DNA of 64,000 bases from Candidatus Saccharimonadales bacterium (GTDB lineage: Bacteria > Patescibacteriota > Saccharimonadia > Saccharimonadales > JBGSXW01), in the NCBI GenBank assembly GCA_041751215.1, contig JBGSXW010000005.1, forward strand, positions 3,664-67,663. Direction: 5' to 3'. The notes beneath the pieces were generated by a model, which saw only the letters and a list, made by a program, of their open reading frames with translations, ran no database searches and was not told where the DNA came from. Positions within the stretch are counted from its first letter, which is position 1; each line of letters begins with the position of its first letter. A program made the translations under genes and the position numbers. Below, in pieces: positions 4,425 to 59,650 of this stretch.

Positions 4425-4471
4425 TTTTCGGTGATGTCAGAAGTAATTTCGACGATTAGAAAGGTGTTACG

Positions 4472-4678
4472 GTGACGAACATCGGTAGAACACATGATAT
4501 CGGGCTCGTCTACGACGGCCCCGCCAACATGCCCGCCCCTCGACCGATCGAGGCCGCGGAAAACCGCTTCCTCGACGCAGTCGCAGTCCTGATGGTGATC
4601 GCCATACCCTTTGTGATCGCCATACCCTTTGTGTTCGCCTACCGCAAGTTCCGCGAGTTGATCTTCCGCAAGTCCTAG
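4472..4678 (+). CDS. small hydrophobic protein, GC-rich cassette 1
   Basis: GTG start 5 nt after AAAGGTG; 68 aa; contains a duplicated VIAIPF segment in a predicted TM helix. Confidence 0.45.
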   Translation: MTNIGRTHDIGLVYDGPANMPAPRPIEAAENRFLDAVAVLMVIAIPFVIAIPFVFAYRKFRELIFRKS

Positions 4679-4709
4679 CAGACGGTTCGCCGTCAGAAAG
4701 GAGCGTCCA

Positions 4710-5096
4710 ATGGAGACGCTGCGCAGCAATCAGATCAAGCTGAAGCCGCTCAGAACAACGGGCGACTATGTGTTGGCCGATGAGCTTGGCAACAACTTCT
4801 TCGGCCTGGGGACGATCGAGCAGGCTCTGACCTTTCGGGGTCAGCGCTTCCTCTACCGGGGCTGCACGATCACCATCATCGAGCATGATGAGATGCCCGG
4901 TGCCGTCTTGCCGGTAGTGAGAGTCCACTCCGCCCCCTGCAAGCAGTGCCAGGCCAAGGTTTCGACCATCTGCCATCTCGAGACCTCGTGGACCCTCGTC
5001 CAGCTCAGGCTCAAATACGAGATGTGGCGCCATCGTTGCAACTACGACCGCCTGGTCGTCGACGTCCTGCCGCCCATCAACGTCAAGCCCACCTAG
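4710..5096 (+). CDS. small CxxC protein, paralog 1 (GC-rich cassette 1)
   Basis: ATG preceded by AAGGAG. Shares the pattern GQxF..G...(~25 aa)..CxxC...(8 aa)..W with ORFs 5124-5501 and 5826-6578. Confidence 0.55.
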   Translation: METLRSNQIKLKPLRTTGDYVLADELGNNFFGLGTIEQALTFRGQRFLYRGCTITIIEHDEMPGAVLPVVRVHSAPCKQCQAKVSTICHLETSWTLVQLRLKYEMWRHRCNYDRLVVDVLPPINVKPT

Positions 5097-5123
5097 GTCA
5101 CCTACCACAAGCGAGGCGGTTCA

Positions 5124-5501
5124 ATGCCAAGCAACATCCAACTCCAACCCATCCGCAATCGAAGGGACCGGCGTCGAGCAGCTCAGTACGGCAATTCCCT
5201 GTTCGGGCTCGGTCTCCTTCCGGAAGAAGGCCTCACAAGCGGACAGAAGTTCACCTTCTGCGGCTATCTGATCCAGTACTTCGATGGTCGATTGGTTTCG
5301 CCGTCGAGAGATGGTCAATCCAACTTCTACCGAAGCAAGGTCACGTGCTTCTGCCCGTGCTGTGGCGAGGAGATGAGCGAACTGTTCAACTTCGACACCG
5401 AATGGACCGAGGTTCATCAGCACATGTGCGGAGAGCGTGACGCCCACCAGTGTGACGCGCCCGAGCTGGCTGTACCGGATGCGAACTTCGCTTCCGTCTG
5501 A
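5124..5501 (+). CDS. small CxxC/zinc-ribbon-like protein, paralog 2 (GC-rich cassette 1)
   Basis: SD-like GAGGCGG upstream; motifs SGQKFTFCGY, CPCCGEEM, TEW, and a second Cys pair MCGERDAHQC. Confidence 0.55.
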   Translation: MPSNIQLQPIRNRRDRRRAAQYGNSLFGLGLLPEEGLTSGQKFTFCGYLIQYFDGRLVSPSRDGQSNFYRSKVTCFCPCCGEEMSELFNFDTEWTEVHQHMCGERDAHQCDAPELAVPDANFASV

Positions 5502-5558
5502 CATCATCCACCGTGCGCCGGCAGGAACCACTCTTTCCCAAGAGACTCCTGCCGGCGC
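5499..5558 (+). repeat. conserved 3' module of cassette 1 (TGA-CATCATCCACC + 40-nt nested hairpin CGGCAGGAACCACTCTTTCCCAAGAGACTCCTGCCGGCGC)
   Basis: The 40-nt core 5519-5558 is identical to 6599-6638. Confidence 0.8.
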
Positions 5559-5575
5559 CATCAACTTTGTTTAAG

Positions 5576-5597
5576 CCCTCAGATTGAGGGATTTTTT
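5576..5597 (+). terminator. intrinsic terminator candidate
   Basis: CCCTC-AGATT-GAGGG followed by ATTTTTT. Confidence 0.5.
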
Positions 5598-5629
5598 ATG
5601 CTCAAAATCAACAAAAGCACTACCGTAAA

Positions 5630-5698
5630 GCTATAGACTTTTTACTGTTAATCTTGTATAATCTGCGTATCAATGCGTCTTGTGACGGGTTGGGAACG
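5630..5698 (+). promoter_or_regulatory. conserved 5' module of GC-rich cassette 2 (extended -10 TGTATAAT at 5655-5662, then leader GCGTATCAATGCG...TTGGGAAC)
   Basis: Homologous to 4358-4424. Confidence 0.5.
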
Positions 5699-5825
5699 TT
5701 AAGATGATGGTCAATTCCCCTAAGTTTAATTCGAGTACTCGAATGTGGCTTTGAGGTTGCACTAAACATAGGCAGCTTCTGAGCCATATTCGAGCAACAC
5801 TCGTGACAACAAGGGAGATAACAAC

Positions 5826-6578
5826 ATGTTCAAGTTCATCAGCAAGCTGTTCAAGAAGAAGTCGGAGGAATCGGCCTACAAGATCTGGGGTCGCCACGAG
5901 CTGCCGCTCCCCAAGGGCCCAAACAGCACCTGGACGGACCGCCTGATCGGTCAGGAGTTCGTGATCGACGGCTACAACTTCGTGATCGTCGGGGAATCGA
6001 ACGCCCACGAGGGGATCTCGGCCCGTCTCGAACTTCCGTGCAAATCCTGTGGCCAGCCACATCGCTTGTGGCTCAGCGTCACCGCGACCTGGGATGATGT
6101 GCTGATGACGATCTTGAGCTTCGCCGAGAAGAGCTGCGACGACTGCAACCAGGTGCTCAACGGTGATATCGACCGCGTCGAAGAGGAGATGGCGAAGAAC
6201 GTCGAGGAGTGGAAAGGCATCGAGAAAGCTCTCGTGGCTTCCGGCCTCGACCTCGATTCCCTCGACCTCTTGGTCAACGACTCCGGCGAAGTCGACTGCG
6301 TCAGCCAGTTCCTCTGGCTCAAGTCTGGCTGGGTACCGCTCTGGCTGTACAGCCGTCGTGGTTTCCCAAGGGATCTGAGCAAGATAAACGAGCTCAAGCA
6401 CATGCTCGGCGTCAACGCCCACATCGAGGGAAACCTGATCTGCTTCTCGCCGATCCATGTGATGCGACCCAGTCGGATCGAAGAGTTCAACGAAGAGCTG
6501 GCAGAACTCCGCAAGCACCAGAACACCATGGAAGCCCACCGCCTCGCCCGCGCGTCGCGCAACACGAGCTCCATCTGA
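5826..6578 (+). CDS. CxxC/zinc-ribbon-like protein, paralog 3 with a C-terminal extension (GC-rich cassette 2)
   Basis: ATG preceded by AGGGAG; motifs IGQEFVIDGY, CKSCGQ, TATW, CDDC; 250 aa. Confidence 0.55.
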   Translation: MFKFISKLFKKKSEESAYKIWGRHELPLPKGPNSTWTDRLIGQEFVIDGYNFVIVGESNAHEGISARLELPCKSCGQPHRLWLSVTATWDDVLMTILSFAEKSCDDCNQVLNGDIDRVEEEMAKNVEEWKGIEKALVASGLDLDSLDLLVNDSGEVDCVSQFLWLKSGWVPLWLYSRRGFPRDLSKINELKHMLGVNAHIEGNLICFSPIHVMRPSRIEEFNEELAELRKHQNTMEAHRLARASRNTSSI

Positions 6579-6638
6579 CCATCATCCACCCCTTGCGTCG
6601 GCAGGAACCACTCTTTCCCAAGAGACTCCTGCCGGCGC
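6576..6638 (+). repeat. conserved 3' module of cassette 2
   Basis: TGACCATCATCCACC plus the same 40-nt hairpin as 5519-5558, followed by a T-run. Confidence 0.8.
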
Positions 6639-6664
6639 ATTTTTCTTTTCATCGCCCTTTTCCA

Positions 6665-6854
6665 CGCATCAGCTAAAACTCCTGAATTTGGGAGGGAGAA
6701 ACCCGGCGTAGCGAGGACTGTCCGCCAGCCGGCGGACGGGTTCCGCAGCCGCCCGAGTCCTTGGGTGAGCCAAGCTCATGAGAGTTTTTACAGCAGCGGG
6801 AAAGTTTTGAGCCACTTTTTAAAAAGTGGCGACCACCCCCGTCGTGGAAACGAC
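6665..6854 (-). repeat. element A, copy 1 (subfamily A1)
   Basis: Near-identical over long stretches to 47225-47395, and reverse-complement homologous to 19134-19311 and 55449-55636. Contains the palindrome GCCACTTTTTAAAAAGTGGC (6811-6830). Confidence 0.8.
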
Positions 6855-6879
6855 AAGCAAATTTAAGTTCTTAAAACGC

Positions 6880-19126: not shown

Positions 19127-19133
19127 TTCTTTT

Positions 19134-19311
19134 GTCGCTTGCCAGCGACGTGGCATTGCCACTTTTTAAAAAGTGGCTCAAAACTACCCCGCTGCTACTA
19201 AAACACTCATGAACTTGTTTCGCACAGAACTTGGGTTACTGCGGAGTACGTATGAACAGTCCTCGTCACGCCATGTTCTGTCCTTACAAGTTCAGAGATT
19301 TTAGTAGATGC
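19134..19311 (+). repeat. element A, copy 3 (subfamily A2)
   Basis: Hairpin GTCGCT-TGCC-AGCGAC; palindrome 19158-19177; closing helix CTACTAAAA../..TTTTAGTAG; core GCGGAGTACG..ACAGTCCTCGTCACGCC. Confidence 0.8.
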
Positions 19312-19350
19312 GGGTTTATCCGAACATCTGACCCTATTTTCAGGGATGAA

Positions 19351-19430
19351 GCACAAGGAAGTTGTGAGTAGTGGAAGGGTTGCTGTGCGTATAGCACTGC
19401 GCCCTGAGCAAGGGAACAACTAACGCAGAG
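19351..19430 (+). repeat. element B, copy i (intergenic, divergent)
   Basis: GCACAAGGAAG....GTGC-GTATA-GCAC hairpin....AACGCAGAG; aligns with 55728-55802. Confidence 0.6.
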
Positions 19431-19490
19431 CTCGTGGTGCGAGCTGCTCCGCAGCTCGGCAGACGAGCGGTGATTCGCCCTGAAAAGAGG

Positions 19491-29718: not shown

Positions 29719-29892
29719 GTTGCTCACTGTGATTTTGAGGTGGAAATCTCGTTAATCGCGGCACTTTTACAAACTGGGCTATCCAGGGAACAATGACTGC
29801 AAGATCAAGATTGTGGCCATCGTCCCCTGGATAACCATGGGAAAAACCGGCGCCTAACCAAGCGCCCCGAACCTCAGAAAGAGGTGATTTTG

Positions 29893-30594
29893 ATGAAGCA
29901 TCCCCGCTTCCTCATCGGAGCGCTCGCCATCATGGCGCTGTCGCTCTTCGCAACCCCGGCCTTCGCGGCCACCGCAACCATCAGCCCCGCCATGGGGCCG
30001 GCTGGCACCATCGTCAACATCAGCGGTGGCGAGTGCCTGCCGACGGAGGAGTTCCCGGTCCATCCTCGGGTCGGTTTCCTCGTCCGCGACGACGACGGCA
30101 ACGAGATCCACTTCGACCTCAACGTCGATGTCGACGAAGAAGGCATGTGGAGCTTCAGCTACGAGATCCCTCTGGTGGATACGGAGTACCTGGAGTTCCT
30201 CGCGTTCTGCAGCGGTGGAAACGGTACGGATCCGGCTCAACTCGTCGACTACGACAGCCTGATCTTCACCTACGCCGAGATCGGCCCGCCTCCGACCACG
30301 GAACCCGAGCCGACCACGACCACCACCGAGGCACCGCCGACGACCGAGCAGCCGACCACCACGGTCGAGCAGCCCGAACCCACGACGGCCCCGACGGTCG
30401 CACCCACGGTCATCACCAACCCCGAGTTCACCTCGCCTCCCGGCGGCGGTGTCCAGACGGACGGTGGTGTCCCTGATGAGGCTGCGCACGAGCAGAACAA
30501 CGCGCTCGTGTTCGGGATCATGGCCGGGTTCTTCGCCCTCATGCTGTTCCTGACCAGGAACAAGAAGGCCAAGAAGGTCAACAGCACGGAGTAG
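29893..30594 (+). CDS. GC-rich secreted surface protein: signal peptide, Pro/Thr-rich linker, C-terminal hydrophobic helix + basic tail
   Basis: ATG after AGAGGTG; signal peptide MKHPRFLIGALAIMALSLFATPAFA; PTTEPEPTTTTTEAPPTTEQPTTT; C-terminus ALVFGIMAGFFALMLFLTRNKKAKK. Confidence 0.7.
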   Translation: MKHPRFLIGALAIMALSLFATPAFAATATISPAMGPAGTIVNISGGECLPTEEFPVHPRVGFLVRDDDGNEIHFDLNVDVDEEGMWSFSYEIPLVDTEYLEFLAFCSGGNGTDPAQLVDYDSLIFTYAEIGPPPTTEPEPTTTTTEAPPTTEQPTTTVEQPEPTTAPTVAPTVITNPEFTSPPGGGVQTDGGVPDEAAHEQNNALVFGIMAGFFALMLFLTRNKKAKKVNSTE

Positions 30595-30804
30595 TTCTTC
30601 CCAGCAATGCCCAGCAAGCGAGCGGTCCGGGTGGGTCATTTGATTACAGACTCAACATCTGAACATCATCTGATCCACCCGGCCCTCGCAACACACTTTT
30701 CTAGGATAGATACAGATCTCACATCTGATTAACAGATGAGAAACCTATACCTGAACTAGAAACAACAGAGGTGACACTTTATTTCCACCCCTGTTATAAT
30801 GGTA

Positions 30805-30833
30805 TTGCTTTTTATTGACTAATTTGGTATAAT
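30805..30833 (+). promoter_or_regulatory. promoter candidate (TTGCTT-17 nt-TATAAT with TG extension)
   Basis: AT-rich block upstream of a ~250-nt leader preceding the sortase gene. Confidence 0.45.
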
Positions 30834-31091
30834 ATACAAGTTCAGTTGGGAGACTCTTAACTGATGAAGGATCAACATAATGATCCGACCTTACCAAGCT
30901 TTGGCAGCAAATTGTCTAGGGATTCTTACCCGGAACTACACCCCGCCCTCCCTGGGAGCACACCATCCAATCTATTCCATCGTACTCCTCATTCGCTTAA
31001 ATAATCGTGAGAATCATCTGAGAACTTTCCGCGTAGGACTCCCTAGACAAGGGACATTCGTCATCTGGCGAATTACAACAAAGGAGCAACA

Positions 31092-31835
31092 ATGCGCTTC
31101 CCCAAGCACATCCTGTTTCTGGTCTGGTTGACACTCGTGTTTTCCCTGACCAGCGGGTCGGTGCAGCAGGAGCGCTTCATGCTCCCTCCGCAACCCACCC
31201 AGGCGGCCGCAGAAGCACCTGCGACCACCACAAGCACCACCGAAAGGCGGGATCGTGTACCAACGTCCCAGGCGTCGACCAGACCCAGCAACCCGGCAAC
31301 AACAGCTCCAGCGCAGCCGACAACGACAGCGCCGGAAACCACGCCGGAACCCGCGGGAATCCCCCGCGTGGTGGTCGAATCGATTGGGGTGGATGAACCG
31401 CTCGTCGTAGGCAACTACTTCGACGAGAACGGCAACATCTCCCCGCCGTGGCAGACAGCCAACCTCTACGGGGGCGGCTCCATGCCTGGACAGGTTGGCA
31501 CGAGCCTCATCGCAGGCCACGTTTCGTCATCGACCTATGGACCCGATGTGTTCTACAACCTCGGGAACATCCAGATCGGCGACATCGTACAGGTCAGCGA
31601 TGGCACCACCAACTTCACCTATCAGGTGACGCTCATCCGCGTTCAGGACAAGCGCCTGCTCGCAACCAGCGAAGCCCCTGGTGAAGATCCCGACGCCGTC
31701 ATTCAGTGGTCTGACATGGAACGCGTGACCGATTGGTCCGTGCTCTACCTGATCACCTGTGGTGGCGAGTTCGGAAATGTCCGCCCGGGTAGTTTCGATT
31801 CGAACATCATCGTTCGAGCCGAGATCGTCCCCTGA
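31092..31835 (+). CDS. sortase family transpeptidase (class F-like), GC-rich
   Basis: AAGGAG SD; N-terminal TM; catalytic His context LIAGHVS; catalytic Cys motif LYLITCGG; conserved Arg near the C-terminus (IIVRAE). Confidence 0.8.
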   Translation: MRFPKHILFLVWLTLVFSLTSGSVQQERFMLPPQPTQAAAEAPATTTSTTERRDRVPTSQASTRPSNPATTAPAQPTTTAPETTPEPAGIPRVVVESIGVDEPLVVGNYFDENGNISPPWQTANLYGGGSMPGQVGTSLIAGHVSSSTYGPDVFYNLGNIQIGDIVQVSDGTTNFTYQVTLIRVQDKRLLATSEAPGEDPDAVIQWSDMERVTDWSVLYLITCGGEFGNVRPGSFDSNIIVRAEIVP

Positions 31836-41466: not shown

Positions 41467-41566
41467 ATCTTCTTATTCCTGTTTACTTATATTGTAACTG
41501 ATTGTTCTGGATTCTCGATCAGGTCGAGAATGACGTTTGCTAGGTTTTAACGATTTTGGTGAATCA

Positions 41567-41650
41567 GATGCACGGAAGATGCGAGTCGCGGAGTCCAGTT
41601 GTACATCAGCGTACCACTGGCGAGCAACGGAGCACCTGACACAGCAGATG
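41567..41650 (+). repeat. element B, copy vii (inside the ssb-rpsR spacer, antisense to the operon)
   Basis: GCACGGAAGATGCGAGTCGCGGAGTCCAGTTGTACATCAGCGTACCACTGGCGAGCAACGGAGCACCTGACACAGCAG aligns with 55728-55802. Confidence 0.75.
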
Positions 41651-41664
41651 GCCACCATAAATTG

Positions 41665-47173: not shown

Positions 47174-47224
47174 ATTCCTGCTTTCGCAGGAATGACCTGC
47201 CTAGCGGCAGGCAGGCTGGAGCCG

Positions 47225-47395
47225 CGCATCAGCTAAAACTCCTGAATTTGTGAGGGAGAAACCCGGCGTAGCGAGGACTGTCCGCCAGTTGGCGGACGGA
47301 CTCCGCAGCTACCCGAGTTTTGACTGAGCAAATTCAAGGATTGTTTTAGCTGCAGCGTGAAAGGTTTTGGGGCACCTTTTTTAAAAAGGTGTCGT
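47225..47395 (-). repeat. element A, copy 2 (subfamily A1)
   Basis: CGCATCAGCTAAAACTCCTGAATTTG.GAGGGAGAAACCCGGCGTAGCGAGGACTGTCCGCCAG..GGCGGACGG matches 6665-6740 almost base for base; palindrome at 47371-47393. Confidence 0.85.
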
Positions 47396-47399
47396 TACG

Positions 47400-49370
47400 T
47401 TAGCCTTGACCGCGAAGCTCGGCTCTCTTAGCCGCCTGCTCATTAAGCTCACCCTTGCTCCCCACGACATTAACAACCGGAATCACGATTGGTGATCGTT
47501 GGGTATGTTCGTAGAGGAAGTAAGTGATGTGATCTTTGAGCTCGGCTTTAAATCGCTCGAGATCCACGCGCTTAAAGCGCTGCAGAACTGTTCGTCTTAG
47601 TTCGGCGCGGAAGGTGTTCATCAGCTCCTCGTTATCACGCATGTAAATAAATCCGCGCGAGATAATATCTGGGCTGGTCATTAGTTGTCCGCTCTTGCGG
47701 TCAACTGTCAGCAGCACTACAACTAAGCCTTCTTCGGCTAGCATCAAACGGTCTTTAACAACTACGCCGGATACCAGCGCACCAGTGTTATCAACTAGCA
47801 TTGTGCCGTGCGGAACAGTGCCGCCAAGGGTAGCTTTTTCTTTTGTTAGCTCAATAACCTCGCCTGGCTCAGCGTTGATGCAGTCTTTTCGGGTCATGCC
47901 GTGGTTGATGGCAATGTCGATGTGTCGCTTCTTAGCATGGTAACTACCGTAAATTGGCACAAAAAACTTTGGTTTGGTCATGTCGATCATTGCGCCGTAT
48001 TCCTCGATAGCCGAGTGGCCAGAAACGTGCAGCGGGCCCATGCCGTCGAGTTCTTGGGTAACGTGCTGAAAGACGTGCACTCCCATTCTCATCAACTTAT
48101 CTACCATACGGGTGATGTGAGCGTCGTTGCCAGTCTCCGGAATTGGAGTAGAGCTGAGGATGACCGTGTCTTGTTCGGCCATCTTGACGTGCCTGTGCTC
48201 ACCGGCTGCCATACGCTGCAGGGCGGCATTTGGTTCGCCCTGTGAGCCAGTACAGACAACTATTAAGTCTTTGCCCTTCATATTGGCTGCAGCAGCAATT
48301 GGTACGAATGTCCCCTTAGGGATCTTGATCATGCCCAAACGTACGGCGGTTTCTAGAGTCGACATCATTGATCGGCCGTCCATGGCAATCTTACGACCAT
48401 GTTTAGCGGCTGAGTTTACAATCATCTGAATGCGGTTAATGTTGGTAGAGAAACAAGCCACAAAAACTCGGCCTTCTGCGCGCGAGATAATCTCGTGAAA
48501 AGCCGGTTCGATGACATGTTCGGTTGGAGTTCGGCCAAGTCTCATGGTGTTTGTACACTCAGAAAGCAAGGCTAATACGCCTTCTCGTCCGAGCTCTTCG
48601 AGTCGGGCAGTGTCGGTTGGCTTTTGGTCTAGCGGATCAGGGTCAATTTTAAAGTCGCCGGTGTTAATAATCGTTCCGACTGGAGTTCTGACCACAATGG
48701 CCGTGCTATCAGGAATTGAGTGCGTTACGCGAACGAATTCGATGCCGAATGATTCACCAATTTGTAATCGTTCGTGATTGTCCTGGTTCATGACAACGGT
48801 TTTAAGCTCAAAGCCATCTACTTGATGGTCGCTGCCCTTAACAATTTGCTCGACCATACCAATGGTAAAGCGCGAGCCATAAACTGGTGCCGGAAACTTA
48901 GGCACGATGTATGGCAGTCCACCGATGTGATCTAGGTGGCCGTGAGTAATTACGTAGGCTTTGATTTTATGCTTAATGCTTTCTAGGTAACTAGTGTCGG
49001 GGATGCCGAAGTTTACTCCTGGCAAATCAACTCCGAGGTCGTTGCCGCAGTCCATGATGATGGCGTCGTTTTGGTACTCGACCACGATCATGTTTTTAGA
49101 GCCGGTGGCATCCATGCCGCCTAGGCCGATTATTTTCAGCCTTGGGCTGTCATCGATCTGATTAGCGCGCCGATGGGTGTTCTTAACCGATGAAGCGTCT
49201 TGATATAGGTTGACTACGCGGTGAGCGTCGTCAGAGTTGCGCCGGCTGGCGCGAATAGCTTGTCCTCGACTCGATCCTCTTGCCCCGCGGGGTTTAGAAG
49301 AAGGTCGATTAGACTTTTGGCCTTGGCCTTGGGGCCTTGGTCTGTTGTTGTTATTTGGTTGGTTTGACAT
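47400..49370 (-). CDS. rnj: ribonuclease J (metallo-beta-lactamase/beta-CASP) with an R/G/N-rich N-terminal extension
   Basis: ITHGHLDHIGG; beta-CASP region; 656 aa. Confidence 0.85.
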   Translation of the reverse strand: MSNQPNNNNRPRPQGQGQKSNRPSSKPRGARGSSRGQAIRASRRNSDDAHRVVNLYQDASSVKNTHRRANQIDDSPRLKIIGLGGMDATGSKNMIVVEYQNDAIIMDCGNDLGVDLPGVNFGIPDTSYLESIKHKIKAYVITHGHLDHIGGLPYIVPKFPAPVYGSRFTIGMVEQIVKGSDHQVDGFELKTVVMNQDNHERLQIGESFGIEFVRVTHSIPDSTAIVVRTPVGTIINTGDFKIDPDPLDQKPTDTARLEELGREGVLALLSECTNTMRLGRTPTEHVIEPAFHEIISRAEGRVFVACFSTNINRIQMIVNSAAKHGRKIAMDGRSMMSTLETAVRLGMIKIPKGTFVPIAAAANMKGKDLIVVCTGSQGEPNAALQRMAAGEHRHVKMAEQDTVILSSTPIPETGNDAHITRMVDKLMRMGVHVFQHVTQELDGMGPLHVSGHSAIEEYGAMIDMTKPKFFVPIYGSYHAKKRHIDIAINHGMTRKDCINAEPGEVIELTKEKATLGGTVPHGTMLVDNTGALVSGVVVKDRLMLAEEGLVVVLLTVDRKSGQLMTSPDIISRGFIYMRDNEELMNTFRAELRRTVLQRFKRVDLERFKAELKDHITYFLYEHTQRSPIVIPVVNVVGSKGELNEQAAKRAELRGQG

Positions 49371-49389: not shown

Positions 49390-50145
49390 CTAGGCTTTTG
49401 CCTTATCTTTTTCTATAAGTTCCAAAATTTTAGGTATACGGGCGAAGTCTTCTAGTAGCACTGTTCTCATTCCCCCGTTGTAGAGTGCTGCGGCCGGGTG
49501 GTACAGGGGCAGGATGACGAACGCCAGCTGGGACTGCTTACTGACTCCGTCAGTAACTCCTCCCAGCTTCGCGGCGATCTGCTGCGTTGACGCCTCCAGT
49601 GCTCCGTCTTCGGATGCTCGATCCGTGTCTGTCCGCGCTTCGGCGTCGCCTTGCAGCTCATCCGCGCGCTCGCCCCCTGGAGTCTTTTCGATATTAAAGC
49701 GCTTCCTCTTTGGCTGCCCATGCGCCTCGCCGATGCGAACATCAGGCAGGAATGCATTGGTCGAGTGGCGCCCGAGCGTGACAATCAAATCTGGTTTAAT
49801 TGCCTCGATCTGGCGCGTTAGAAACGGCATAAACTGAGCTTTTTCCTCTGGCAGAGGGTCTCGGTTAGCCGGAGGTCGATACTTAACAATGTTGGTAATG
49901 TACACGTCTTCTCGATTGAGATTAATGCTTTGCAGCATTTTGTTTAGAAACTTCCCAGCGGCTCCAACAAACGGCTTGCCCTGCTTGTCTTCCTGAGCGC
50001 CAGGAGCCTCGCCGATAAACATAAGTTTAGCATCGAGACTGCCATCGCCCATTACCAGTTGAGTGGCTCCAGCGGCCAGCTCCGAGCAAATGTTTTGATT
50101 TTTAATGTCCTGTTCGATGCGATCTAGCTGCTGTTGCTTGCTCAT
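49390..50145 (-). CDS. family-4 uracil-DNA glycosylase carrying an in-frame element B insert
   Basis: Motif A FIGEAPG; motif B LYHPAAALYN; about 50 extra residues before motif B. Confidence 0.8.
   Translation of the reverse strand: MSKQQQLDRIEQDIKNQNICSELAAGATQLVMGDGSLDAKLMFIGEAPGAQEDKQGKPFVGAAGKFLNKMLQSINLNREDVYITNIVKYRPPANRDPLPEEKAQFMPFLTRQIEAIKPDLIVTLGRHSTNAFLPDVRIGEAHGQPKRKRFNIEKTPGGERADELQGDAEARTDTDRASEDGALEASTQQIAAKLGGVTDGVSKQSQLAFVILPLYHPAAALYNGGMRTVLLEDFARIPKILELIEKDKAKA
49531..49689 (-). repeat. element B, copy ii (in-frame within the UDG gene; boundaries approximate)
   Basis: Coding strand GATGAGCTGCAAGGCGACGCCGAAGCGCGGACA..CGGAT-CGAGC-ATCCG..GGAGCACTGGAGGCGTCAACGCAGCAG. Confidence 0.75.
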
Positions 50146-52807: not shown

Positions 52808-53659
52808 TTATTCAAGAGGAATTACTGATGAAATTATTTTCTCGGCATCAGCTTCCGGAGATACCGCTTCATCTACCCTGTAGCTGGCAATGGTAGTTCG
52901 TCTCAGATCTGTTAGGTAGGCGCCGGTGTTTAGCCCCTTACCGATGTCCTCTGCCAAGCTACGAATGTAGGTTCCGCTAGAAACTTTGGTCCTGCATTTA
53001 AGTTTTGGGTACTCATAAGAAACAACTTCAAGCGAATGAATAACAACTGTGCGCGACTTTAACTCAATTGGCTGACCTTTGCGGGCCTGTTTATAGGCTG
53101 GCTGACCGTTTACTTTAATCGCCGAATAGCTGTGTGGGCGTTGCATAATCTCGCCCGTAAATTGCTTAATGACCTCTGTTATTTGCGATTCTGTGGGCGC
53201 CTTGGCATTTGGCCATGGTTCAGGTTCGCCTTCGGCATCACCGGTGACTGTAGTTGCTCCGAGTTGAGCCGTGAAGTCATATGACTTATCAAGCTTTAAA
53301 AGCCTGTCGGCTTGCTTGGTGGCCGATCCAATAAGCAAAATCATCAGTCCAGAAGCTAGAGGATCTAATGTTCCGGCATGCCCAACGCGAAGCTTCCGCA
53401 CCGCGTCGCCCTGTTGTCCGGCTACGCCGGCCATGCCGGCGAGCTTGTGGCGCAGCGCTGTGTCAGCTGGCGTCTGTCGCTCGCTCACCGTGTCATTTAC
53501 ACGACGCGCTCGCTCCTCCTGGCTTCCTTGCGCTGCATCCACATGCGAAAGTCGCGCACTTTCCGCCAGTTGAGCTCTTCGCAGAGTTCCGCGGACCTTC
53601 GCCACTACGTCAAAAGACGACCAGCCTTTTGGTTTATCTACTAGCAAAATGCCGTTCAT
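52808..53659 (-). CDS. truB: tRNA pseudouridine-55 synthase carrying an in-frame element B insert
   Basis: GILLVDKPKGWSSFDVV...VGHAGTLDPLASGL, with about 59 extra residues between the two conserved blocks. Confidence 0.8.
   Translation of the reverse strand: MNGILLVDKPKGWSSFDVVAKVRGTLRRAQLAESARLSHVDAAQGSQEERARRVNDTVSERQTPADTALRHKLAGMAGVAGQQGDAVRKLRVGHAGTLDPLASGLMILLIGSATKQADRLLKLDKSYDFTAQLGATTVTGDAEGEPEPWPNAKAPTESQITEVIKQFTGEIMQRPHSYSAIKVNGQPAYKQARKGQPIELKSRTVVIHSLEVVSYEYPKLKCRTKVSSGTYIRSLAEDIGKGLNTGAYLTDLRRTTIASYRVDEAVSPEADAEKIISSVIPLE
53399..53575 (-). repeat. element B, copy iii (in-frame within truB; boundaries approximate)
   Basis: Coding strand GTGGATGCAGCGCAAGGAAGCCAGGAGGAGCGA..CGTGT-AAATG-ACACG..GACGCCAGCTGACACAGCG. 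Confidence 0.7.
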
Positions 53660-53692
53660 TGCCTAATTGTATAACTTTTTAGAGCTAAGAAC

Positions 53693-55345: not shown

Positions 55346-55448
55346 GTAGTTAATCTTTTTTGTTTTTTGCAATAAGCTATCAGGGGTAGAGTAGCATAAC
55401 CACATTGCTAGGTCAACCGGGACGCATTACAGAGCAAGGATCTGCATT

Positions 55449-55636
55449 GTCGCTCCCGCGACGGGGCAATGCCACTTTTTATAAAGTGGCGTTGGAACTC
55501 TCCCGCTAACTACCAAAACAAAACTCATTAGTCTATGGGGCCAAAGAACTCGGGCAACTTGCGGAGTCCGTCTGAACAGTCCTCGTTGCGCCGGGTCTTT
55601 GGCCGCACAGCCTTAAAGAGGTTTTGGTAGAGACGG
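55449..55636 (+). repeat. element A, copy 4 (subfamily A2)
   Basis: Hairpin GTCGC-TCCC-GCGAC; palindrome GCCACTTTTTATAAAGTGGC (55471-55490); helix CTACCAAAAC../..GTTTTGGTAG; core GCGGAGTCCGTCTGAACAGTCCTCGTTGCGCC. Confidence 0.8.
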
Positions 55637-55727
55637 AAAGTTACAGGAAGGGCTTTACATCTCACCTCTGTTAGTGTATATTCATCCCCTGAAACTAAAT
55701 TAAGTACGGGTTTCGTACTTAGGTGTA

Positions 55728-55802
55728 GTGCAAGGAAGAAGCGAAGCGCGGAGCCTAGTTGTACAGTCGTACTGCTAGCGAGCACTAGAGCGTCTGACGC
55801 AG
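55728..55802 (+). repeat. element B, copy iv (intergenic, upstream of rpsT)
   Basis: GTGCAAGGAAGAAGCGAAGCGCGGAGC-CTAGTTGTAC-AGTC-GTACTGCTAG-CGAGCACTAGAGCGTCTGACGCAG. Confidence 0.8.
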
Positions 55803-55878
55803 TAATACACTAAGAACCTTGACGGGTGGCCAGTTCAACTGGACAGCAGGTCAAGGTGATACGAAAGCCAGAGGTCAT

Positions 55879-56265
55879 ATGCCAATTATTCAATCAGCCA
55901 AGAAAAGAGCACGACAAGAAGTTATACGCCGTGAGCGCAATGTTAAGACTAAGCGCGACATGAAGTCGGCTCTTAAGAGTCTTGAGGCCGCAGTTGCTAA
56001 AAACTCCCCTGCTGACGTTGCAAAAGCTATGTCACAAGTTCAAAGTAGCCTTGATAAAGCCGTAAAGAAGAATCTAATTCACAAGAACAAAGCTGCACGA
56101 AAAAAGGTTCAGGCCAGTAATCTTGCCAAGACCGTGCTTAAGACCAAAGACATCAAGCCAAGTGCTAAAAAAACTGCAGCCAAGCCTGCTGCTAAGAAGG
56201 CGGCTCCTGCTAAAAAGCCAGCAGCCAAAAAAGCTCCAGCCAAAAAGCCTGCTGCTAAGAAGTAG
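55879..56265 (+). CDS. rpsT: 30S ribosomal protein S20 with a Lys/Ala-rich C-terminal tail
   Basis: MPIIQSAKKRARQEVIRRERN...; ATG at 55879 after AGAGGT; tail KPAAKKAAPAKKPAAKKAPAKKPAAKK. Confidence 0.85.
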   Translation: MPIIQSAKKRARQEVIRRERNVKTKRDMKSALKSLEAAVAKNSPADVAKAMSQVQSSLDKAVKKNLIHKNKAARKKVQASNLAKTVLKTKDIKPSAKKTAAKPAAKKAAPAKKPAAKKAPAKKPAAKK

Positions 56266-58402: not shown

Positions 58403-58509
58403 ATCCCTATAGCTATACCACTTTTTAAGCAGTTGTTGCTACTTATGCTTCCCTGAACTCTTTTCACTACCAATCACCGTTCACCTGCCTAGCTGCAAAG
58501 CAGCTAGCA

Positions 58510-58595
58510 CTGCGAACTCTTTGTCAGACACTCCGCTGCTCGCAAGTAGTACGCAATGTACAACTTGGCTGCGCTGCTCACGTCTTCCGCGTGCT
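58510..58595 (-). repeat. element B, copy v (immediately 3' of mutM)
   Basis: Minus strand CACGCGGAAGACGTGAGCAGCGCAGC-CAAGTTGTAC-ATTGC-GTACTACTTG-CGAGCAGCGGAGTGTCTGACAAAG. Confidence 0.7.
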
Positions 58596-58612
58596 TGGTT
58601 AGTGCAACGAGC

Positions 58613-59650
58613 TCAAGGTTTTTGGCACCGCGGACAATAGTGCGTACCCCGGCCAGCAACTCTCGTCTTTAAAATCTCCGACCCACAAACTCGGCAAGCC
58701 AAGCCCTCGCGCTTAAACACTCGAGCGTGCTCTAAATAATCGCCTCTCGTTCCCAAAACATTTACATAATTAGTAAAGCTCGTGCCGCCACGTTCAATGC
58801 CATCGTGCAGAGTTGATTTGACTGCCTCGTACAAAGTTTCAATCTGTTTATCGCTAAGTTTAGAAGACTTTATAGCTGGGTGAATTTTGGCTAAGTGAAG
58901 TGATTCGTCGGCATAAATGTTGCCGATTCCAGCCACGGTAGTCTGATCTAAAAGTACGGCTTTGATTGGAGCGTTTCGTTTCTTAACGACACCCTTAAAG
59001 TGCGCCAGCGTAAACTCCTTGCCGTGCGGTTCTGGGCCAACTTTGAGCAAAAATGGATCCTCATCCACGCTCTGCGTGCGCACTAACTTTACCCAGCCAA
59101 ACTTGCGTTGGTCGTTAAAGTAAACTATAGAACCACTTGCAAAGTGAAAGATCAGGCGAGTGCTGCTGTCAGGAAGCGAATTCTTGAGATCCATACTGGT
59201 ACTTGGATGGCCGCCCGCAAATCTTTCAAAACTCATAGATTGTGAGCTGCGAGGCGCCTGCCGTCTAGTAGCACTAGCCGCACCGCGCCTCTCTGCGTCA
59301 GTGGCTCCGGTACTCTCGCCCAGTACGCTGTTGTACTGATTGGTCCGTTCCTCGTCACTTCCTTGCAGCTCATCGGCCTGATGAGCTTTGAACCCAACTT
59401 GATTATCTACAATAACTTGGCCGGTCATCTTGAGGTGAAACATCAAAGAGTAGCCAGATGCCAAGTCGATGATCAAAACTTTGGCACGTCGGCGAACGGC
59501 CGTAACTTTGCTTCCAATCGCATTGAGGTAATCATCCTGCTCAAATAATGCAGTCTTAGGTGTTAATACATCGATGCTAGTTAGTGTGTCGCCAACAATC
59601 CGCGGCTCCAAGCCACGTTTTATTGTCTCGACCTCAGGTAATTCAGGCAT
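58613..59650 (-). CDS. mutM: formamidopyrimidine-DNA glycosylase carrying an in-frame element B insert
   Basis: MPELPEVET N-terminus; H2TH; C-terminal zinc finger CRVCGSEI....GRGTHYCPRCQ; 345 aa versus the usual ~270-290. Confidence 0.85.
   Translation of the reverse strand: MPELPEVETIKRGLEPRIVGDTLTSIDVLTPKTALFEQDDYLNAIGSKVTAVRRRAKVLIIDLASGYSLMFHLKMTGQVIVDNQVGFKAHQADELQGSDEERTNQYNSVLGESTGATDAERRGAASATRRQAPRSSQSMSFERFAGGHPSTSMDLKNSLPDSSTRLIFHFASGSIVYFNDQRKFGWVKLVRTQSVDEDPFLLKVGPEPHGKEFTLAHFKGVVKKRNAPIKAVLLDQTTVAGIGNIYADESLHLAKIHPAIKSSKLSDKQIETLYEAVKSTLHDGIERGGTSFTNYVNVLGTRGDYLEHARVFKREGLACRVCGSEILKTRVAGRGTHYCPRCQKP
59231..59389 (-). repeat. element B, copy vi (in-frame within mutM; boundaries approximate)
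   Basis: Coding strand GCCGATGAGCTGCAAGGAAGTGACGAGGAACGGACCAAT-CAGTAC-AACAGC-GTACTG-GGCGAGAGTACCGGAGCCACTGACGCAGAG. Confidence 0.8.

Follow-up and report, generated by a model that had tools for sequence, protein, structure and literature searches.

The window analysed here, a stretch of 64,000 nucleotides from Candidatus Saccharimonadales bacterium (contig JBGSXW010000005.1), carries on its minus strand a gene for the tRNA pseudouridine-55 synthase TruB (positions 52808-53659; 283 aa). The product matches Pfam TruB_N (PF01509; E=3e-48) and TruB_C_2, the sole Pfam matches of the protein, and it displays the TruB_N fold, motif I and the GH.GTLDP motif with the catalytic Asp; G93, G96, T97, L98, D99 and P100 are invariant among 76 homologs. 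An identical protein (P0001) is encoded on a 262-kb contig. Between motif I and GHAGTLDP, the gene harbours 56 extra codons. The PDB matches to TruB structures (phmmer; E=1.6e-36) align on both flanks of this segment: query residues 3-24 correspond to residues 7-28 of M. tuberculosis TruB and residues 90-274 to 33-221, which leaves ~61 residues unmatched between the two blocks, and the Pfam TruB_N match begins only at residue 89. The closest homolog (P0002; 82% identical, 227 aa) reads VRGTLSRELGHKIKVGHAGTLDP where the window protein carries 56 more residues. An earlier interpretation of this DNA from the letters alone (hereafter, the sequence-only reading) had counted ~59 extra residues here, and the segment is indeed real, if slightly shorter.

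As likewise proposed in that reading, the segment is GC-rich (0.60-0.71 versus 0.48 for the window) and is overlain by three plus-strand ORFs in three frames (53271-53573, 53368-53682 and 53378-53644). A GC-rich block within a lower-GC gene might hint at a chimeric join inside truB introduced by assembly or binning. However, the same insert occupies the same site, with the frame intact, in independent NCBI, ENA, JGI and Logan assemblies, and we regard the chance of such an artefact as negligible.

The 56 extra codons represent one copy of a dispersed 169-nt element. While its limits had been drawn at 53399-53575, alignment A4 places the element proper at 53388-53556 on the minus strand, encoding roughly ARLSHVDAAQGSQEERARRVNDTVSERQTPADTALRHKLAGMAGVAGQQGDAVRKLR. 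This copy is in frame, free of stop codons and three codons 5' of GHAGTLDP, so that in the protein it falls between helix alpha-1 and the strand bearing the His and the catalytic Asp. A structure model of TruB was confident in the core (mean pLDDT 89.3) and reached only 46-71 for residues ~40-90, with a helix (residues 15-56) that continues alpha-1 and then passes into coil.

Plain-sequence searches did not uncover further copies in the window: blastn of the truB insert returned no match there, and a 30-mer of the insert is unique, because the copies are too diverged and profiles are needed. A profile of 67 copies, all from other contigs and none from the window, identified seven copies in the window (nhmmer), including that in truB (E=2.1e-26; model positions 4-167 of 169). 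The kinship between the truB segment and other repeat copies that had been claimed is hence true, yet weak in plain sequence. A full-length intergenic copy (55705-55872, plus strand; E=8.7e-25) lies directly upstream of rpsT, whose ATG is at 55879; it was also recovered with a profile of three truB copies only (E=4.9e-8) and contains stop codons in the frame used by gene-internal copies. Two minus-strand copies are in frame within other genes. The first, at 59265-59386 in fpg/mutM (58613-59650; E=3.5e-12), is degraded and keeps 55% of the model base pairs; in fpg, a Pfam gap of ~70 aa separates the Fapy N-terminal domain from H2TH. The second, at 49514-49678 (E=1.9e-7), resides in a family-4 UDG gene (49390-50145), where the Pfam UDG match spans 195 aa on 127 profile positions. 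The orthologs of syntenic relatives are without insert in both cases (289-291 aa for fpg, 191-200 aa for UDG). The remaining three are intergenic: partial copies at 58464-58597 (minus strand; E=2.7e-10), immediately downstream of fpg, and at 41548-41661 (plus strand; E=1.5e-9), antisense to both neighbour genes, as well as a weak copy at 19333-19482 (plus strand; E=1.4e-5) beside an 'A' repeat.

Outside the window, a profile search of 2.05 Mb of DNA yielded 128-132 element matches and a pattern scan of metagenomes at least 120. On the protein level, an exhaustive HMM search with a profile of the 51-aa insert peptide matched 180 clusters and was the informative one, as a word-index homology search with the same profile gave 2 matches. 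Roughly half of these clusters consist of ORFs of 55-65 aa that stand alone; the others are inserts in unrelated proteins. Altogether, the sequence occurs inside at least 20 unrelated proteins, with TilS, Dus, PrmC, FolD, PheT, DinB, IMPase, PilM, malic enzyme, MPG, DHFR, MsrA, ApbE and TsaE among the hosts, and it is also found with stop codons between genes, where most copies reside. This family of intergenic and intragenic copies, together with the open frame, supports the main claim of the sequence-only reading, namely that a dispersed repeat is translated in frame just before the catalytic block. No element match was obtained in viral contigs (pattern scan) or in phages and plasmids (blastn).

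Comparison of the copies revealed a three-way junction of 55 base pairs, with compensatory changes in 53 of them. Paired cells amounted to 92.0%, compared with 69.6% in shuffles (0/500 reached 92.0%) and 29-45% when the partners were slid, and the covariation score was 0.643 versus at most 0.133 with slid partners. Since G·U pairs exceed A·C pairs on the coding-sense strand (266 versus 81), the fold belongs to that strand. Single-sequence folding gave a weak signal (z-scores of -1.5 and -1.7), and the comparative analysis alone was decisive.

The junction is closed by stem P1, formed by the inverted-repeat ends, and comprises an arm P2-P3-P4, which bears near-invariant GCAAGGAAG and CTGACGC blocks, and a second arm P5-P6. 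In truB, the 5' arm of P1 (CGCGACTTTCGCA; 53544-53556, minus strand) pairs with the 3' arm (TGCGGAAGCTTCG; 53388-53400, minus strand), the latter overlapping the codons R-K-L-R directly before VGHAGTLDP. All 13 pairs of P1 covary across 71 copies, with pairing in 86% of cells; its seven inner base pairs (TTTCGCA/TGCGAAA) are conserved, while the outer pairs are locus-specific and covary among truB orthologs, along with the R/K codons preceding VGH. The nearly invariant GCAAGGAAG block (53523-53531, minus strand; columns at least 90% conserved in A4) is predicted to hold tandem G·A / A·G pairs against the conserved CTGAC block. Helix P4 (helices 6-7 of the model; 53487-53505, minus strand) is the CGTGT-AAATG-ACACG hairpin already spotted by eye in the sequence, with compensatory variants in orthologs, e.g. 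CGTAC..GTACG and CGTAT..ATACG. The P6 hairpin on the 3' arm (GGCCGGC GTA GCCGGAC; helix 9; 53415-53433, minus strand) has 8 pairs, all with compensatory changes and with 95% of cells paired. A junction fold with very strong covariation, in place of a simple palindrome, goes beyond what the sequence-only reading had described.

The element constitutes a new family without a match in Rfam. At the gathering threshold, Rfam 15 reported only tRNAs in the window and in 18 copy-bearing loci, and permissive searches with the truB copy, a consensus-like copy and a high-GC relative produced chance matches only (E>0.4). A likeness of P4 to the lower helix of group II intron domain V (GAGCCGUAY...RUACGGU, with a G·U at the AGC position) was discarded, as there was neither a model match nor an upper helix or bulge, and a likeness to SRP RNA (AAGGAAGC) was dropped on the same grounds.

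Gene-internal copies are always in sense orientation and always use one and the same reading frame (S0: GAT GCA GTG CAA GGA, i.e. D-A-V-Q-G). This frame is open in 15/15 gene-internal copies; of the 56 intergenic copies, 11 have S0 open, as against 23-24 for each antisense frame. Hydropathy is -0.61 for the S0 peptide, compared with +0.06 to +0.25 for the antisense frames. The exclusive use of S0 could, instead of selection on the peptide, stem from an orientation-specific insertion mechanism. The presence of the element between genes and, in frame and in a single frame, in many conserved protein genes agrees with the insertion pattern of Rickettsia palindromic elements (RPE).

Several of these features are reminiscent of inserts that are removed or skipped at the RNA level, be it by self-splicing, by an endonuclease plus ligase or by ribosome bypass, in which case TruB would be made without the 56 residues: P1 holds the two host junctions close to each other, the fold is preserved at its site, as for introns of essential genes, and the insertion sites adjoin strongly conserved motifs, a trait of homing introns and inteins. 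However, each of the 14 sense copies inside genes for which the flanks are adequate is read through, in frame and stop-free, and none is split-like; neither this nor the uniformly open S0 frame would be required if the element were removed ahead of translation or in its course. Besides, group I and group II intron models and Rfam ribozyme families did not match the element at E<=10, and it is shorter than any self-splicing intron known to us. We therefore deem removal or skipping very unlikely. An intein was rejected as well, since a Hint domain needs at least ~130 aa, whereas the insert has 56 aa, TruB_N and TruB_C_2 are the only Pfam domains, and the constraint acts at the nucleotide level.

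That constraint emerged from the truB orthologs, in which divergence at the first, second and third codon positions is 0.27/0.21/0.27 for the insert and 0.36/0.25/0.64 for the remainder of truB. The equal divergence at the three positions implies a constraint on nucleic-acid structure, not on the peptide. Synonymous sites of the truB orthologs are near saturation, yet the fold is kept in place; this, together with the covariation of the outer P1 pairs, is unlike a decaying parasite and suggests that the folded RNA or single-stranded DNA has a function under selection, one for which the explanation favoured below does not account. Conservation of the insert as nucleotides and not as a peptide had not been anticipated by the sequence-only reading.

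The same-site insert is present in P0003-P0015, P0017-21, P0023, P0029 and P0043. The nearest TruB relatives, P0002 and P0016, are without it, as are P0100/P0118, P0032 and P0076, which are nested within the insert-bearing clade. The truB insert is thus old, shared across many Saccharibacteria and patchy on the tree. Distances of insert and host correlated with r=0.15 across 6 truB orthologs, a value that says little because the host tree is star-like, and a locus search of genome contigs found distant TruBs only (at most 50% identity), few of them with an insert. The sequence-only reading had set itself against an ancestral domain present in all relatives and unrelated to intergenic repeats. 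One half of that description applies, in that the insert is old and not genome-specific, being found at the same site in many relatives; the other half does not, given its relation to intergenic repeats and its patchy presence.

These data also bear on the view that the segment is a lineage-specific TruB extension selected for a peptide function, e.g. extra RNA contacts, with the repeat likeness being secondary. Consistent with such an extension, many Saccharibacteria TruBs share the site and a recognisable peptide consensus, the C-terminal R-K-L-R adjoins the active-site His, and a long helix is predicted to continue alpha-1. However, the third codon positions show no relaxation, the same sequence recurs between genes with stop codons and inside unrelated proteins, close relatives lack the segment, and the model has low confidence over the insert. 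This makes a peptide-driven origin highly improbable.

A more serious alternative, overlapping with the explanation we favour, is that the primary role of the element is that of a structured RNA with a function for the host or for itself, whose gene-internal copies double as coding sequence. The 169-nt fold might then be a hitherto undescribed functional RNA class (a scaffold for protein binding, a cis-regulatory sensor, or an RNA with a catalytic or guide-like role linked to its own dispersal), selected at each resident site including essential genes and kept for local action, such as control of mRNA fate or translation, or release of a small RNA. Strong purifying selection on structure across deep divergence, outer P1 pairs that covary in place, near-invariant unpaired blocks typical of ligand, protein or tertiary contacts, and a G·U excess indicative of a strand-specific fold all speak for it. 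So does the setting of certain intergenic copies: some occupy orthologous sites in several genomes, the Shine-Dalgarno sequence of the downstream gene lies within the 3' arm of P1 for the rpsT copy and for L085, L095 and L101, and three copies (L140, L186 and L092) directly adjoin a tRNA gene on its 5' side, from which RNase P would free them. In addition, the core of the element occurs in high-GC organisms too, and copies in the same genome are as diverged as copies in different genomes, as expected of old functional loci and not of a recent burst. On the other hand, intergenic copies are of mixed orientation relative to their neighbour genes (opposite to both in 29 cases, the same as both in 18, by a crude ORF call), and many would need a promoter of their own. 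Some copies are clearly decaying, such as the fpg copy and the partial ones; no gene or pathway was consistently associated with the copies, and no known RNA family matched. We hence consider a primary RNA function possible, though unlikely. If true, Saccharibacteria would possess a dispersed dual-use RNA module with relatives in high-GC bacteria, the same bases of which encode a tolerated peptide.

With regard to mobility, the element shares with MITEs its terminal inverted repeats, that is, the 13 pairs of P1. In the paralogous copies L203 and L125, identity is 90% in the core, 73% in P1 and 33% in the flanks, indicating that P1 travels together with the core. No direct repeat was seen at the boundaries of 71 copies, which are old and whose boundaries are uncertain by a few bases, and the copy boundaries share no general flanking motif or tetranucleotide and no general T-runs after P1 that might act as terminators. 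Neither a transposase among the called genes of syntenic loci nor a RAYT/TnpA gene was found. The high within-genome similarity of MITEs is lacking: core identity stands at 0.57 between copies on one contig and at 0.62 between copies on different contigs. As the former are no more alike than the latter, we see no trace of recent transposition, in contrast to active MITE families.

Taken together, we think it likely that the extra codons of truB are a resident copy of an old, dispersed, ~169-nt non-coding RPE-like element of Saccharibacteria that is translated into a disordered surface loop. The element probably is, or was, mobile DNA: an enzyme would have spread copies into intergenic DNA and genes, and those in the S0 frame would yield a peptide of hydrophilic character and low complexity, which a surface loop is able to accommodate. 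In truB, the ribosome would read through the copy, giving rise to a poorly ordered protrusion. The peptide may accordingly be a tolerated passenger, and TruB presumably still works and remains active with the insert.

In-frame translation of small repeats is established for RPE, YPAL, ERIC and the Correia 107-bp form (PMC2229807, PMC10969869). The closest parallel, as far as they are summarised in these two articles, are the Rickettsia palindromic elements RPE-1 to RPE-10 (Ogata et al. 2000). As portrayed there, they too are small non-coding repeats (100-170 bp) with terminal inverted repeats of ~12-13 bp in a reduced-genome, host-dependent bacterium; their copies are intergenic as well as embedded, in frame, in many conserved housekeeping genes, the peptide specified by one of the frames is conserved and regarded as a passenger tolerated at the protein surface, and related species share insertions at orthologous sites. 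The present element belongs to another phylum, and the comparison is one of descriptions, with no sequence kinship expected. It also differs in its three-way junction with two arms and invariant unpaired blocks, as opposed to the single long stem-loop that these accounts give for RPEs, in its very strong covariation, in a nucleotide conservation above that of host synonymous sites and in its related core in high-GC organisms.

YPAL/RU-2, of 168 bp with a 56-aa ORF, is essentially identical in size (PMC2229807). In YPAL, ERIC and the Correia 107-bp form, 5' and 3' ends pair and in-frame fusions occasionally arise, and these families are transcribed as stem-loops able to affect neighbouring mRNAs, which we count as a further likeness (PMC2229807). 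They display, however, TA target duplications, high within-genome similarity and links to IS630/IS-type transposases (PMC2229807), whereas our element shows no duplication, the low within-genome identity given above and no transposase partner in the syntenic loci. Moreover, the YPAL peptide is hydrophobic and that of the element hydrophilic.

With homing introns and inteins, the element shares a location in the best-conserved stretches of essential genes, a patchy occurrence among close relatives and a structure kept in place, but it matches no ribozyme and no Hint domain, is too small (169 nt or 56 aa), is always in frame and read through (14:0) and is mostly intergenic. REP/REPIN-RAYT systems and IS200/IS605-derived palindromes resemble it in being a strand-specific folded single strand without terminal duplication, at the ends of which structure counts above sequence; the element, however, has no visible RAYT/TnpA gene or conserved flanking tetranucleotide, and REP hairpins are far smaller and simpler, as well as extragenic. 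Ribosomes skip the mitochondrial 'byp' insertions of Magnusiomyces and that of T4 gene 60, for which an in-frame state is not required. They, too, are GC-rich structured mobile inserts in coding sequence that are retained in the mRNA; the strictly in-frame, stop-free state of our element differs from theirs and argues for read-through.

In the literature on Saccharibacteria and Patescibacteria repeats, MITEs, RNA motifs and in-frame insertions, we found nothing relevant. The colonisation of housekeeping genes by small repeats in frame is best documented in Rickettsia, with isolated in-frame fusions of other MITEs elsewhere. Its recurrence in Saccharibacteria, an unrelated genome-reduced, host-dependent lineage, suggests a general outcome of this lifestyle. 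With more than 120 copies and nearly all pairs compensated, the element ranks among the better-supported uncurated RNA-like folds, and it is kept at the nucleotide level inside the gene of an essential enzyme. It offers a testable system for how structure and coding share the same bases, how proteins gain surface segments and how such elements are maintained. On a practical note, gene callers turn intergenic copies into ~60-aa 'proteins', which account for the stand-alone half of the matched clusters.

The truB gene (52808-53659, minus strand, 283 aa) carries an extra in-frame segment, as the sequence-only reading had claimed. When the window TruB was compared with solved TruB structures by phmmer, query residues 3-24 and 90-274 were aligned and ~61 residues had no counterpart; the aligned blocks lie just five residues apart in M. 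tuberculosis TruB (28 and 33), and the Pfam TruB_N match begins only at residue 89 of the window protein. The segment is also as GC-rich as that reading had described it (0.60-0.71 vs 0.48 in the window), is overlain by the three antisense ORFs noted there (plus strand, in three frames) and contains the quoted hairpin CGTGT-AAATG-ACACG. In an AlphaFold2 model of the window TruB (76 homologs), the TruB core is confident (mean pLDDT 89.3) and residues ~40-90 have low pLDDT (46-71); the alpha-1 helix is prolonged to residue 56, followed by a predicted coil that returns to the core at the strand leading into GHAGTLDP.

The same reading had aligned the truB insert with other copies of element B, a dispersed folded repeat (truB copy at 53388-53556, minus strand). 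This kinship was recovered by profiles but not by blastn, in which the truB insert had no match in the window; element B is a repeat whose copies have diverged. Seven window copies were matched by a profile of 67 copies taken from other contigs only and none from the window, with E-values from 2e-26 (truB) to 1.4e-5. GC-rich in-frame extras are present in the genes for a family-4 UDG (49390-50145; 195 aa for 127 positions of the Pfam profile) and Fpg (58613-59650; ~70 aa gap between its domains), and the truB, UDG and Fpg inserts have GATG..G.GCAAGG in common, read in the same frame as D-x-x-Q-G. Besides, a profile from three truB copies detected an intergenic copy of full length upstream of rpsT (55705-55872; E=4.9e-8), whose end is 7 nt from the start codon of that gene (ATG at 55879).

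Across an alignment of 71 full-length copies (166-173 nt, mode 169), RNAalifold predicted 55 pairs, 53 of which showed compensatory double changes. Paired cells amounted to 92.0% vs 69.6% in shuffles, a value reached by none of 500 shuffles, and dropped to 29-45% after partners had been shifted by 1-3 columns. Covariation scored 0.643, compared to at most 0.133 for shifted partners. The architecture is a three-way junction. Its 13-bp closing stem, P1, is built from both element ends, with a conserved inner 7 bp (TTTCGCA/TGCGAAA) and outer pairs that differ by locus. One arm (P2-P3-P4) contains the near-invariant GCAAGGAAG, repeated GAG blocks and CTGACGC, and the second (P5-P6) has GCAG in an internal loop. 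G·U pairs exceed A·C mismatches (266 vs 81), which places selection for the fold on the displayed strand; in every host gene this is the coding-sense strand. Rfam 15 returned no match for element B, at gathering or permissive thresholds. In the copy upstream of rpsT, the 3' arm of P1 includes AGAGG, so that the rpsT ribosome-binding site likely resides within the closing stem; similar arrangements were seen at loci L085, L095 and L101.

According to a crude ORF call for 126 distinct copies, 100 are intergenic, 21 lie in sense within long ORFs and five are 'antisense' within probably spurious ORFs. One frame, S0, is used by all 15 gene-internal copies of the alignment and is open in just 11 of 56 intergenic copies; each antisense frame is open in 23-24 of these 56. 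The S0 peptide is hydrophilic (hydropathy -0.61) and rich in A, R, S, G, Q and E; antisense-frame peptides are rich in L, C and P (+0.06 to +0.25). Of 83 good copies, 14 showed in-frame read-through between two long open flanks, and no out-of-frame or stop-bearing copy appeared to split a gene. Together with the in-frame use, this argues, at the sequence level, for translation through the element in its host genes, and disfavours its splicing or bypass. The earlier reading of a dispersed repeat translated in-frame inside truB is supported.

When a 51-aa profile of the insert peptide was used for an exhaustive HMM search, it matched 180 protein clusters. Roughly half of these are free-standing 55-65 aa ORFs, intergenic copies wrongly called as genes; dozens of 50-70 aa database 'proteins' (P0128-P0270) are translated intergenic copies, and such entries are systematic artefacts of gene calling. 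In the other half, the peptide is internal to unrelated proteins, with TilS, Dus (three clusters), PrmC (three), FolD, PheT, DinB, inositol monophosphatase, PilM, malic enzyme, methyltransferases, MPG (two), DHFR, MsrA, ApbE, TsaE and a pilin as hosts. At the DNA level, a degenerate pattern had at least 120 matches in a metagenome collection and nhmmer found 128-132 copies in 2.05 Mb of collected DNA; the viral contigs, phage genomes and plasmids searched held no copy. Related P3-P4 cores (GCAAGGAAGCG.CGAG.AGCG...GAGCGCAT..ATGCGTGAGCGAGCAGCGCAG.AGCTGACGC) occur in metagenome contigs of 65-71% GC (L111, L121, L175, L153, L090, L114 and L088), and the motif's range is therefore wider than Saccharibacteria. 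Each of these high-GC cores is closed by a 13-bp stem of its own and has an additional 5' hairpin, and they are wedged between one gene's stop codon and its neighbour's start codon. Two cores from contigs in this GC range immediately precede a tRNA-Trp gene. Element copies or high-GC relatives stop 0-3 nt 5' of tRNA genes (L140:3882-4075; L186:~420-640 and L092:~340-520, both at tRNA-Trp), where RNase P processing would provide a defined 3' end for the element RNA.

Among six truB orthologs, divergence by codon position was 0.36/0.25/0.64 for the enzyme and 0.27/0.21/0.27 for the insert, with equal amino-acid divergence (0.41 vs 0.40). Insert nucleotides are thus conserved above nearby synonymous sites, with no coding signature. 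Among these orthologs, compensatory substitutions fall in P4, in P6 and in the outer pairs of P1. The 3' arm of P1 shares bases with the R-K/R-L/I-R/K codons that directly precede VGH, and the R/K choices in these codons are mirrored by the 5' arm. Of the model pairs, 87% are retained in copies within genes and 92% in intergenic ones. Copies on the same contig are no more alike than those on different contigs (identity 0.57 vs 0.62), so the family is old, with no sign of recent bursts.

The TruB homologs assign the organism to Candidatus Saccharibacteria. Many Saccharibacteria TruBs carry the insert at this same site, and this loop is an insertion hotspot. The closest TruB relative (P0002, 82% identical) has no insert, and several insert-less sequences nest among insert-bearing ones in a neighbour-joining tree. 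P0007 combines the ancestral KSLKIK linker with an insert that its sister sequences lack, and the window TruB linker RRAQLAESARLSH resembles that of distant insert-bearing TruBs (e.g. P0008), not that of its sister P0002. This mosaic suggests that truB alleles are exchanged through recombination. Syntenic relatives carry the TruB insert but have Fpg (289-291 aa) and UDG (191-200 aa) without inserts; these two window copies, also the most degraded, are therefore lineage-specific. A partial second copy or extra sequence adjoins the insert in P0018, P0045/L164:5518-5710, P0014 and P0007, giving linkers of 92-124 aa, and five TruBs (P0075, P0084, P0099, P0039, P0048) have a different, unrelated insert (LSVISNQSK...) at the site. 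Genes of the bAvd / 23S_rRNA_IVP family, accessory proteins of diversity-generating retroelements, adjoin truB or fpg in relatives (L205:3838-4254; L082:4491-4844).

The closest known phenomenon, by analogy, is that of the Rickettsia palindromic elements, repeats of ~105-150 bp with ~12-bp inverted ends that lie in-frame in many conserved genes of another reduced-genome bacterium (PMC2229807, PMC10969869). Element B resembles these and YPAL (168 bp, 56 aa; a match in size; PMC2229807) in the respects tested. However, it differs in its complex three-way-junction fold, which covaries strongly and includes invariant unpaired blocks, in showing no visible target duplication, in low similarity within a genome and in being conserved in place at the nucleotide level. 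Given the latter, a purely parasitic, decaying element falls short as an explanation; that the folded RNA or folded single-stranded DNA is functional is conceivable, if rather doubtful. The Saccharibacteria and Patescibacteria literature searched contained no description of such an element, and element B is a new family, and a structural variant, within the known class of small, dispersed repeats with in-frame translation.

A second repeat family of ~190 nt, apparently the 'element A' of the sequence-only reading, has four window copies (nhmmer, E=1e-49 to 1e-57), at 6650-6858 and 47216-47402 on the plus and 19128-19328 and 55442-55638 on the minus strand. It ends in a terminator-like hairpin (GCCACTTTTTAAAAAGTGGC), and twice it lies directly beside an element B copy in divergent orientation; it had no match in Rfam or in 2 Mb of other Saccharibacteria loci. 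Two long blocks (4463-6816 and 29847-31566; GC 0.65-0.76), which have overlapping ORFs on the two strands and match nothing in Pfam, adjoin a sortase gene (31092-31835), and a 48-nt repeat recurs at 5511-5558 and 6591-6638 with 96% identity.
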